NCBI GenBank assembly: GCA_008632985.1
Contig: QPGO01000170.1
Location: forward strand, 62,001 to 126,000
Direction: 5' to 3'
Source: Psammoneis japonica
Lineage: Eukaryota
DNA: 64,000 bases
This document shows positions 21,725 to 24,804 of this stretch, piece by piece (the first letter of the stretch is position 1; every line of letters begins with the position of its first letter). Below the pieces are notes generated by a model. That model made no database searches. It saw only the letters and a list, made by a program, of their open reading frames with translations, and was not told the origin of the DNA. A program made the translations under genes and the position numbers.

Positions 21725-24700
21725 ATGGCGGCGGCATTCCTCTTCGTGGTGGCATTCCGCCTTTTTGTTGGCACCGATGCTAGTCCCACCATTATCGCTG
21801 ATAATCGCGTCCGAATGCTGGATACGACGCCAGTGCTCGGACGTGGATACAGTGTCGGAACTAATACCTTTCATTCGACCTGCCTTGTTGTCAACGAAAC
21901 GAGCACTCCATCCTACAACTACGACTGTAAGTCTCAGGTTTGTGCTAGGGTCCCCGACAGTAATGCGATGTCCTTCTCACCAATCCGACAATGCATTTTT
22001 CAGACTACGTCACGGACTTGACAACGGTGGAATCGTCCGACCAGGTAATGCACGGAAAGATTTCCGATAGCTTTGGGTACGGATTCATTAAGGAGCGTGT
22101 GCATGCCAACATCCACAAGAAGGCGAACAAGCACAAGAACTACACGTACTACAAATTTAATTTTGCCGCAACCATGCGTGTTGATAGCTATTATTCCAGC
22201 GTGATGGAAGATCAATCCTTGCTCTCGTCTTCAGCGCAGGAATTGCTTCGGAATGACGATTACATTGGATTCTTCAAGGCCTGTGGTTCTAACTACGTCC
22301 GTAGTATTCGACGCGCCATGGAGGTGACTGCAGTATTCACCTTTGAGTCGAACGAAACTTCAACTGCCACGGATTACGCTGCTTCCATCAGCTCACGTAT
22401 CTTTGGGCAGAGTCGCCAGTCCAATGGAACGGAGGACGATTCTCTCACAATTGAGATAAAGGGATACGGTCTTGGACTCAATAAAAATGGATCTGAGACT
22501 CTGGTTGCGACGTCTCTCGGTGAATACAATAAAGCTATGAAGTTCGCCTTCCGAGTCATGACCCAAGACAATGGTGCTCGCGGCGCAGGCACGAGCACAG
22601 GAATGGTCCATGCTGTTGAGGTCGTCCCATGGGTCGACAACACCGCATTCCAGGTTACTGCTGGCATCTTGGAGCACGAAATCAAGGTACCTGTACCTCA
22701 AAACGCTTTTCCCAAGGCGGGCGTTGCGGTATGCGAGGACAGCGCACTTTTGAAGGACAAGAACGGGATTTGCTGCGAAGCCCCGGAATCGCGGGTTGAG
22801 AATACCATACGCACTCCAGATGGATTAAGAAATATTGCTGACTCGGGCGTTTGCAAAGAGGGGTACAAGGCTGCAGCTTCAGCTACTGGGGAATGCAAAG
22901 CCCCGCTAAAAGAGGACACAAATGGAATTTGCTGCCGCTCCCCGGAAGGGCGAGACGAATCCGCCAATCCAGCTGTTTTAGGTGTCTGCAAAGAGTCCAA
23001 GGCCGCAGGTGGGTCATGCGAAGACAGCATGCTACTCGAGGACAGGAATGGAAGGTGCTGTGAAGCCCCAGAAGGCCGAATCGAGACCACCGATGAAGGC
23101 ATATCCTCCCTCGCCCTGACGATCAATGATGATGACGGATCCATAAATGTAATTAACAGAGGTGTTTGCAAAGAGTACAAGTTTTTGCATCCGGCGGCTA
23201 TAAGGAACAACCTTGCGCTGAATGGAGAGTTTGTGGCAACTCTGGATGGAATTGTTCGCAACAAGCAGAACTCATTCCATCTGTTGGGACAGTGCATCCA
23301 AGCACTCGAAGGGATCCCAGCCAAGTACAACTACTACTACCTGAAGGCGCTGGATACTGTCAAGTACGATTCTGACATCGAGATCGATGTCACAGTACTG
23401 GAACTAAAGATCATATTGAATCCGGACGGGAATTACGGACTTCTCTCGCAACAGGCACACGAGCTTGACGAGTTTGTCGAGATGTACTACAACCCTTGCA
23501 TCTCAGCGATGGTAGATGGCACGTACTATGATGACATGAACGCCGCCGAGAAATACTTCATGGGCAGGCCGTGGTTCAGCCTCGCTGAATGTAGTCAGCG
23601 TTCGTGTTTGGTAGACGGCATGCGATGGGATCGGAAGAAGGGTGGCTGTATTCCAACCATACTGGCAACAGGCCCGAATTCGGAAGACGACATGGATGGT
23701 GGAACCAGCGATGACGACGCCTGCTTGATGCAGGTTGATGGAGAAGGCAACGAAGAATGCAAATACATGTCAACCGACTTTGAAACACAAGCACTGGATT
23801 GCTGGGCGGCCATCAGAAGAGATCGCTCACGCAGCGATGGCTCCGTTATTGTCCCCTCCGAAATGATCAGTCACTTCTGCATGCCCCAGATTTCCGACAG
23901 TACGATCAATCAGAGTACAATCGATGCAATTGATGCGGCCAGCAAAAAGTGCTTCTCTAGCACGGTGCAACCAACAGACTGCCATGCATGCTCAACGTAT
24001 TATCGGGAGGCAACTATGTATACCCCGCCTTCGCTGTGGGGGTCTCCGTCTCCATTGACGAATTTCGATTGTGCAAAGAACTGGGATACGTCCGAGTGCT
24101 GTGCATTTGACCCAGACACAATGATGTGCGGCGTCTTATATTATGGTAAGTTCTTGCACCCTTGTGCTGACTGCCAAACAGAGGCAACTCCAACAACACC
24201 GCCACCTACGCCGGAGGTAAATGGGCCAACTACGAGACCAACTCCGTCATCTAATTCAGGCGATCTCGAGGTGGTTGGCAACAATGGAGTGCCCGCTGAG
24301 GTTTATCCACTTGGCCGTTGCCAGGGTGACTGCGACAGGGACTCAGACTGTCAATCGGGTCTCTCGTGTTTTCAGCGAGATCCTAATGAACCAGTGCCGG
24401 GATGTACCGGGCACGACAAAGATGAACACGACTACTGCTATAAGCGTTTAGGTGGGTGGCCCGTGCGAAGCCTGCCTGAATGCTACAACGCCCTCAAATT
24501 ATCCGACGCTAATGGTGACGGTATGATCAAGCGTTCTGAGTACGTCACCTTTGTTGACATGCTCTCCAACGGCGCTTTTTCGGACGCTTCCGGTGACTTT
24601 TCGGCACTGCCACTCCCCCTGCGAGCGAACTTTATGATTATTTCCTGCCTATGCTCACGCTTGGAGAGCGCAGCACCGGACTGTTGTATTGATGACAAGG

Positions 24701-24804
24701 CTCACATCAATGTGAACGTGGACGGTACTGGTCCAGACGAAATGGAGTACCGTATCACAGTGTGTTTGAGTACGATGAATTCAGTTGAAGAATCCCTGCA
24801 ATGA
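21725..24804 (+). CDS. Secreted MACPF-like protein, paralogue 2, with 3 Cys repeats, frustulin-type module and EF-hand-like C-terminus (exons 21725-21926, 22004-24804)
   Basis: Signal peptide; intron 21927-22003 at the same position as paralogue 1 intron 1; PLGRCQGDCDRDSDCQSGLSCFQRD; DANGDGMIKRSE. Confidence 0.85.

Follow-up and report, generated by a model that had tools for sequence, protein, structure and literature searches.

The closest described counterparts of the gene considered here are the MACPF proteins, such as perforin, complement C6-C9, MPEG1/perforin-2, stonustoxin, pleurotolysin B and Plu-MACPF, together with the cholesterol-dependent cytolysins (CDCs) and their CDC-like relatives (CDCLs). 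MACPF/CDC rings grow by head-to-tail edge pairing, and perforin-2 provides a working analogue of a tethered pore-former that hits whatever touches the host surface. In a 64,000-nucleotide stretch of the Psammoneis japonica genome (contig QPGO01000170.1; hereafter the window, to which coordinates refer), a forward-strand gene at 21725-24804 encodes a 1000-residue protein that shares with MACPF proteins the predicted fold of its N-terminal domain, a modular architecture with a C-terminal part for targeting or anchoring, and a signature-like motif at the same place. The differences lie further along the chain: where EGF, C2, TSP or LDLa domains follow in MACPF proteins, a 4-Cys mini-module and a helical domain without a solved counterpart follow here, and the tail is built from diatom wall-type modules. 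The explanation that best accounts for the whole, and which we regard as evenly poised between right and wrong, is that of a secreted modular protein from a large unnamed branch of the MACPF/CDC superfamily, with a pore-forming head and a wall-docking tail.

The second set of described counterparts is the frustulins, which reside within the diatom wall's organic matrix and whose acidic Cys-rich (ACR) domains bind Ca2+, according to PMC4557024. The hexapeptides CQGDCD and VPGCSG define the ACR of epsilon-frustulin, and a frustulin is recognized by at least three of five features—a presequence and ACR, Pro-rich, polyglycine and Trp-rich domains—in PMC4712521. The P. japonica protein shares with frustulins an ACR module holding both hexapeptides (CQGDCD exactly, and VPGCTG for VPGCSG), the Pro-rich spacer ahead of it and an endoplasmic reticulum (ER) signal. 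It differs in having a single ACR where frustulins have several, in lacking their polyglycine and Trp-rich parts, and in being unrelated to them over 80% of its length.

Two exons make up the gene. Exon 1 (21725-21926, forward strand) begins at the ATG at 21725 and encodes a signal peptide (residues 1-19, 21725-21781; MAAAFLFVVAFRLFVGTDA) followed by the initial conserved stretch of the MACPF/CDC-like domain, in which the equivalent of strand 1 (PSYNYD) lies; its product is homologous to the N-termini of the relatives P0005, P0022, P0040 and P0097. Beyond a phase 1 GT-AG intron of 77 nucleotides (21927-22003, GTAAGT...TTTCAG), exon 2 (22004-24804) continues as a single open frame to the TGA stop at 24802-24804. 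This splicing is supported by homology, because full-length relatives are colinear with both exons and because a sister gene, discussed below, carries its intron 1 at the same codon. The initial annotation had both ends of the gene right, without mention of the intron, and the signal peptide, Cys-rich body, Pro/Thr linker, CQGDCD unit and DANGDGMIKRSE motif that it listed all lie where it placed them. The signal-type stretch is the sole hydrophobic segment of the 1000 residues, 44 of which are Cys, and the mature N-terminus aligns with relatives immediately ahead of a conserved I-x-D-x-R-x-R motif. Membrane anchoring was considered and rejected, since a second hydrophobic segment is absent. 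Plastid targeting was likewise rejected on motif grounds, because Phe is absent at the signal-peptide cleavage site.

The MACPF-like character proposed earlier for the N-terminus is invisible to sequence profiles and is borne out by a predicted structure. The fold was modeled with AlphaFold from a 126-row alignment on P0005, the closest full-length relative, which is 50% identical to residues 1-259 of the exon 2 N-domain (E 3.1e-65) and 54% identical to the exon 1 product. The P0005 model has a mean predicted local distance difference test score (pLDDT) of 90.9 and a predicted template modeling score (pTM) of 0.87. Its elements run in the order strand 66-75, helix 82-107, strand 116-133, a helix pair at 142-160, strand 163-182, helix 185-219 and strand 222-228. 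A Foldseek search of the PDB with this model gave 302 matches at E<=10 and five at E<=1e-3; all 50 of the matches listed are MACPF/CDC proteins, albeit at low TM-scores (0.15-0.31), and include C8alpha (1.1e-4), stonustoxin, Plu-MACPF, GNIP1Aa, TgPLP1, pneumolysin, perforin and pleurotolysin B. Taking the structure comparisons together, all 50 listed Foldseek and VIA rows, as well as ranks 1-18 of 48,161 chains, are MACPF/CDC. Among named clusters of the ESM Atlas, 18 of 30 matches are MACPF sets (best 0.96, with 193 of 256 features shared) and six are Thiol_cytolysin sets. The order of strands and helices and these structure matches together indicate a MACPF/CDC fold with helical clusters at the places of the two transmembrane hairpin (TMH) regions, TMH1 and TMH2. 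On the strength of this model, the N-terminal ~280 residues of the window protein (residues 20-300, 21782-22701, with the intron inside), which are colinear with P0005, very probably adopt a MACPF/CDC fold with long central strands and two helical clusters. The bent sheet and TMH regions, whose absence the initial annotation had named as fatal to its proposal, and which it had suggested seeking with AlphaFold and Foldseek, are both present in the P0005 model, that is, in a relative rather than in the window protein.

By correspondence with P0005, the candidate TMH1 region lies at residues 73-118 (22018-22155), matching the cluster of helices (82-107) that separates strand 1 from strand 2, and the candidate TMH2 region at residues 180-213 (22339-22440), matching the cluster 185-219. 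The latter is followed by strand 4 and then by an invariant GYGLG (22456-22476). Ahead of it stands the family signature (22186-22314), which consists of a YY pair (residues 129-130), 26 more residues and then FFKACGSNYVRSIRR (residues 157-171, 22270-22314), so placed that 34 residues separate the YY pair from the Y of Y-V-R. Counted over 125 alignment rows in P0005 numbering, C160, G161, R170, G229 and G274 are present in 125 of 125, W284 in 124, F156, F157 and R166 in 121 each, Y129 in 115 and Y130 in 112. Position 164 is Y in 109 rows and F in 15 more, and position 165 is V in 69 and I in 48 (117 of 125 together), with G never listed. The window protein keeps all the family motif residues: YY 129-130, FFKACGSNYVRSIRR and GYGLG.

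These motifs resemble those of the known groups in part. The MACPF signature reads (Y/W)-G-(T/S)-H-(F/Y)-x6-G-G. At its place (residues 161-173) the window protein has C-G-S-N-Y-VRSIRR-A-M, in which G, S and Y fit while C, N and A-M deviate, and the family consensus there is C-G-P-N-Y-x6-A-Q. For the CDCs and CDCLs, PMC7527733 gives a sensor motif, F/Y-F/Y-Xn-YGR plus a glycine pair, that is conserved in 92-99% of CDCLs. Across the 125 rows the family keeps YY, R and G229 and has V or I where YGR has glycine, thus falling outside the CDCL definition. Judged by the strand positions in the P0005 model, we infer that YY...Y-V-R...G-x-G may be the positional equivalent of this sensor motif. Further differences from the CDCs and CDCLs are that the window protein is without a domain-4-type beta-sandwich, an undecapeptide and a W-rich loop, that the W.WW and ECTG motifs are absent, and that the domain following the core in this family is helical. 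CDCs are marked by a domain 4 with the undecapeptide and a Thr-Leu pair. The window protein does not match the CDC profile PF01289; Thiol_cytolysin matches occur below threshold in two of 25 bacterial-type relatives, the best at E 0.008 and 15.5 bits against a cut-off of 25.

The kind of protein—a MACPF/CDC pore-former with a targeting tail—is already known, whereas its sequence family is unnamed in Pfam or NCBIfam; ten relatives are called "hypothetical protein" or nothing at all in their source records. A description of the family was not found in the part of the literature on diatom MACPF, perforin and pore-forming proteins, or of later CDCL work, that was covered. That literature mentions in passing two CDC-like genes of Thalassiosira oceanica, which belong to a different family. 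Identity with the published T. oceanica CDCL was rejected, because its N-terminus is CDC-like and unlike that of the family in the supplementary alignment of PMC7527733, and this difference sets the family of the window protein apart as a separate lineage.

A capacity for self-association was probed by predicting a trimer from three copies of P0005 residues 20-300 with ESMFold, which uses no alignment, alongside three controls. The trimer scored 0.50 against 0.00 for the best of the three controls, although pLDDT was 55-62, the use of three copies is unlike the calibration, and the result is possibly a memory of rings. Of the calibration proteins, 21 of the 30 solved as one-chain pairs attained the mark, as against none of the 23 solved as single chains. 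Across the trimer runs, contact agreement was at least 38% and partner pLDDT at least 55. The contacts of lowest error join residues 223-229 (strand 4) of one copy with residues 68-72 (strand 1) of the next, and the third copy engages both faces. This predicted pairing of strand 4 with strand 1 is of the MACPF/CDC ring kind and lends some support to binding between copies. Oligomerization and pore formation by the window protein would have about an even chance of being real.

A MACPF fold need not imply lysis, and the protein could instead be a structural or morphogenetic component of the wall matrix, or a surface protein for signaling or adhesion, that uses the fold to bind membranes or other proteins. 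The company of wall-type modules (the ACR and the Pro/Thr spacer) and many disulfides would suit such a role, as would the partial loss of the classical MACPF signature to C-G-S-N-Y-x6-A-M. Equivalents of TMH1 and TMH2 are nevertheless present, with pore-compatible lengths (~46 and ~34 residues) and a helical form in the model; all 125 of the 125 rows keep the glycines that follow strand 4; self-association is predicted to run through the edges of strands 1 and 4; and the lectin-tailed relatives resemble typical targeted toxins. We consider a non-lytic role unlikely.

The family to which the window protein belongs is large. A first search scored 7,999 word-sharing candidates, 127 of which proved to be family proteins at E<=0.001, and listed 120 relatives; when 1.84 billion cluster representatives were searched exhaustively, 371 clusters (formed at 50% identity) passed E<=0.001, with 257 passing E<=1e-10 and 68 passing E<=1e-30. 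Members occur in diatoms and in a few spirochaete genomes. Precomputed Pfam domains are present in 19 of the 120 relatives listed and are always C-terminal (13 F5/8 type C, three DUF285, and one each of WSC, PT and LNR), while in a further set of 48 relatives seven have Ricin B, F5/8C, PA14, LNR or TSP1. In a FastTree tree of 106 rows, from which rows with under 75% coverage of the core columns had been removed (20 of 125) and to which the sister gene had been added, the five F5/8C-tailed rows form one clade, the two DUF285-tailed rows another, and the 19 short bacterial-type rows fall together on one side. The position behind the core thus acts like an address label that can be exchanged, as expected of targeted pore-formers.

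The bacterial members tend to be clustered. Matches were found in four of 201 sampled genomes of the spirochaete phylum, five to eight in each and mostly in tandem. For instance, a contig from a Leptospiraceae metagenome-assembled genome (G001) holds four family copies within 6.9 kb, and genome G064 has seven family matches within 12.6 kb. The bacterial loci comprise L001 (1-6559), G001:C242, L002 (G064:C26:261500-277500) and G052:C46 (4400-17210). One array consists of eight head-to-tail open reading frames (ORFs), one of them encoding a MORN-repeat protein, and none of the array ORFs bears a Pfam name. These arrays may represent a multi-component pore-forming system. The bacterial members also suggest a possible link to diatoms through gene transfer.

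At the address-label position, the window protein carries a tail for which there is no counterpart among the relatives examined: an ACR module combined with an EF-hand module. The tail starts with a window-specific Cys-rich segment of 65 residues and eight Cys (residues 727-791, 23980-24174), for which neither a relative among 293 fetched proteins nor a Pfam match was found. A spacer rich in Pro and Thr follows (residues 792-825, 24175-24276; eight P, eight T and three S in 34 residues), and then comes a single copy of the ACR module (24277-24450), with CQGDCD at 24319-24336 and VPGCTG at 24394-24411. The C-terminal module of 114 residues (residues 887-1000, 24460-24801) contains the EF-hand loop DANGDGMIKRSE at 24505-24540. 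When the protein was shuffled 20,000 times, the EF-loop pattern turned up by chance in 52 of the shuffled versions, C.GDCD in 14 and VPGC.G in 14. Neither the C[EQA]GDCD motif nor the EF loop was found in any of 258 fetched family members, so the tail appears special to this gene; among the 120 relatives listed, none covers more than 70% of the query.

The CQGDCD unit turns out to be a true ACR module of the frustulin type and shares 52-67% identity with modules of 33 among the 34 diatom-type proteins found with the tail (P0259-P0292), which include records from Phaeodactylum, Cylindrotheca and Seminavis and mostly hold several copies each. In these proteins ACR modules are joined to PhoX alkaline phosphatase, multicopper oxidase, trypsin-like protease, Ricin B lectin, WAP, LRR and DUF7633 domains. 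No Pfam model matched the module in the tail or in the seven ACR-bearing proteins scanned. The ACR may be a general surface-retention module. To describe the window protein as a fusion to frustulin overstates the relationship. Of the frustulin features it has the single ACR, the Pro-rich spacer and, in part, the presequence, its ER signal being the first of two targeting signals; polyglycine is lacking, as is a Trp-rich domain (there is one W in the last 116 residues), and numerous secreted diatom proteins of unrelated kinds bear ACR modules as well.

The DANGDGMIKRSE motif, for its part, is a canonical EF-hand loop within a conserved module, with D, N, D, G, I and E at positions 1, 3, 5, 6, 8 and 12. 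The 12-residue loop and its flanks are shared with EF-hand proteins at large, from which the window protein differs in the K at loop position 9 and in its extracellular setting, and the rest of the 114-residue module, with its six Cys, is known from P0286 alone. The Pfam EF-hand_1 profile matches module residues 8-33 over profile positions 2-27 of 29 (E 0.026, 14.5 bits against a cut-off of 25.4), and the neighbors of the module in the ESM Atlas are EF-hand clusters (0.91). EF-hands, whose 12-residue calcium loops lie between two helices, usually come in pairs; a second EF loop was not found. A local search aligned the module at ~42% identity (E 2.5e-23) with the N-terminal ectodomain module of P0286 (residues ~58-170), which keeps the loop as DANGDRRVDSEE. 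In P0286, a protein of 961 residues without Pfam domains, the EF-type module caps the outer end of a long Ser/Thr/Pro stalk, and a single membrane-spanning segment is predicted. No further relatives of the module were found at E<=0.01 among longer proteins in a word-index search, nor in two metagenome scans, so that its conservation rests on this one relative. The module looks like an EF-hand domain of diatom-type organisms, extracellular and with Cys, that has so far gone undescribed.

The tail could serve as a calcium-dependent anchoring or targeting device, a proposal we hold with roughly equal confidence and doubt. Sea water contains ~10 mM Ca. At that concentration an extracellular EF-hand would be permanently loaded, which makes a regulatory calcium switch unlikely and casts doubt on the initial annotation's notion of a Ca-regulated protein; a structural or adhesive role for calcium is more likely. 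As we picture it, the secreted protein would oligomerize on a target membrane, where the two helical clusters would refold to beta-hairpins and open a pore. The tail would dock the protein, via bound calcium, into a frustulin-rich organic coat, most likely the producer's own wall. The pore-forming head would thereby be held at the cell surface, the contact site for bacteria, parasites and other cells, and the tail-less sister would be the free form. Defense or allelopathy, the uses suggested in the initial annotation, would be putative roles for such a protein.

The surface on which the tail docks is somewhat more likely to be the producer's own wall than a foreign one. Own-wall docking is favored by the ACR modules that many surface enzymes of the diatom itself bear. 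The alternative, that the tail brings the pore-former to other diatoms, whether competitors or mating partners, by binding their calcium-laden coat rich in ACR and frustulin, draws on the lectin-type domains that relatives hold at the tail position, on the target recognition performed by the C-terminal domain in known MACPF/CDC toxins, and on the distal placement of the EF module on the mucin-like stalk of P0286, as befits an interaction module. PMC7527733 likewise discusses binding domains of CDCLs. Set against this, the presence of the ACR on enzymes such as PhoX and multicopper oxidase fits retention on the diatom's own surface, and a silica wall would stand between the coat and the plasma membrane to be attacked, a mechanically awkward arrangement. 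Delivery to foreign diatoms strikes us as improbable.

The sister gene, the tail-less paralogue of the initial annotation, lies on the same strand at 12655-14710, with exons at 12655-12856, 12936-13401 and 13486-14710. Its 630-residue product has the same core as that of the tailed gene and one Cys mini-module, and ends near the end of the family core, in keeping with the earlier statement that it lacks the tail. The two genes are 7 kb apart and are sisters in the tree (Shimodaira-Hasegawa-like support 95), on long branches of 0.83 and 0.60. In the two-component CDCL toxins of Bacteroidota, the long form is a platform for the short form, as PMC11169675 describes. The bacterial arrays of the present family recall these long and short toxins, which motivates a two-component reading of the tailed and tail-less pair: a complement-like system in which the tailed protein docks first as a platform and recruits the tail-less sister, which polymerizes into the pore. 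Besides the arrays, with their five to eight matches per genome in four of 201 genomes, such a division of labor fits a long and a short sister that are neighbors on one strand and each other's closest relatives. Both sisters, however, have the full core including the helical domain, so that the "short" one is merely tail-less; the P0005 homo-trimer passes the self-association prediction, leaving a second component unneeded; and the branch lengths mark the sisters as old duplicates, for which proximity is weak evidence. A two-component system is an outside prospect. A more elaborate version is that diatoms and a few spirochaetes share an unrecognized third MACPF/CDC sequence lineage, and that in this diatom the tailed protein, fixed by its ACR/EF-hand tail in the calcium-rich frustulin coat of the silica wall, is the platform from which the free sister polymerizes into the membranes of settling microbes; this is in our judgment less probable still.

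Several observations tell against a pore-forming, wall-docked MACPF/CDC protein. In Pfam, neither exon product matched a family at E<=1, the MACPF model (PF01823) had no match at E<=0.01 in 48 relatives or, even at E<=10, in five named relatives, and NCBIfam named none of six. A single-sequence search of the PDB returned two chance-level matches (E 0.83 and 2.1), and a search by family profile returned none. The folded protein is the 50%-identical P0005 and not the window protein; the two-residue hydrophobic alternation in the TMH candidates is weak to modest; and MACPF-fold proteins that do not form pores exist, with astrotactin-2 among the structure matches. The trimer prediction, for its part, was made without an alignment and under conditions unlike its calibration, reached a pLDDT of only 55-62 and may recall solved MACPF/CDC rings. 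As for the tail, its AlphaFold model (model residues 268-545) has a pLDDT of 30-50, with the Cys-rich segment below 50, and the EF-hand case involves a match under the Pfam cut-off, a single loop and one module relative only.

Least probable of all, and in our view very unlikely, is that the tail lies outside the mature protein through an unrecognized intron or an earlier transcript end: the nearest relatives do stop ~25 residues past the conserved FCMPQ motif and the tail is unique among 258 relatives, but the frame stays open for ~280 codons past the family core with no in-frame stop for a shorter product, and the same frame encodes two modules with independent homologs (the ACR at 52-67% to 33 proteins and the EF module at 42% to P0286).

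Between head and tail lies the rest of the core. Three tandem 4-Cys mini-modules (22732-23169), of the pattern C...NGxCC..PExR...GVC and with 12 Cys in all, are followed by a family-conserved, mostly helical middle domain (residues 457-720, 23170-23961) without a clear solved counterpart. The mini-module is triplicated in this gene only, relatives and the sister having one copy, and at the DNA level the repeat cores (22754, 22913 and 23039) share 75% identity. The triplication lengthens the link from the head to the helical domain.

The surroundings of the pair include both possibly mobile and immune-type genes. Between the two sisters, on the reverse strand at 18891-20765, is a 625-residue ORF with a GCR1_C DNA-binding domain (E 2.4e-5), a domain found in Crypton-type tyrosine-recombinase elements, and the ORF may represent either a mobile element or a copy of one that became domesticated. 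Further transposon- or helicase-like ORFs lie at 31801-33003 (four HA domains), 34292-36634 (DUF7869) and 36926-39244 (a DEAD/ResIII helicase with an HA domain). Immune-type genes stand near the pair on the reverse strand at 49429-53652, 54495-56213 and 59941-63170. Among these are a 1408-residue ORF in which a CHAT protease domain is joined by domains of a STAND NTPase (nSTAND1/NB-ARC) and a protein kinase, another CHAT ORF adjoining an nSTAND3/NB-ARC ORF, the two possibly being a single gene, and a Macro-domain ORF. Together with the MACPF-like pair, the immune-type genes could form a conflict or defense neighborhood.

Diatoms account for a large part of the photosynthesis in the ocean. What becomes of them depends on the bacteria, parasites and competitors that they meet at their surface, and their weaponry there is hardly known. 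The family described here extends the MACPF/CDC superfamily and raises the question of gene transfer between spirochaetes and diatoms. If its members form pores, they would provide an entry point to algal defense or antagonism, and if the tail anchors as proposed, the ACR/EF-hand unit would be a natural tag for the display of proteins on silica walls. Should the surface-mounted system of a third lineage prove true, a phytoplankter would in effect possess an innate immune weapon anchored to its wall.

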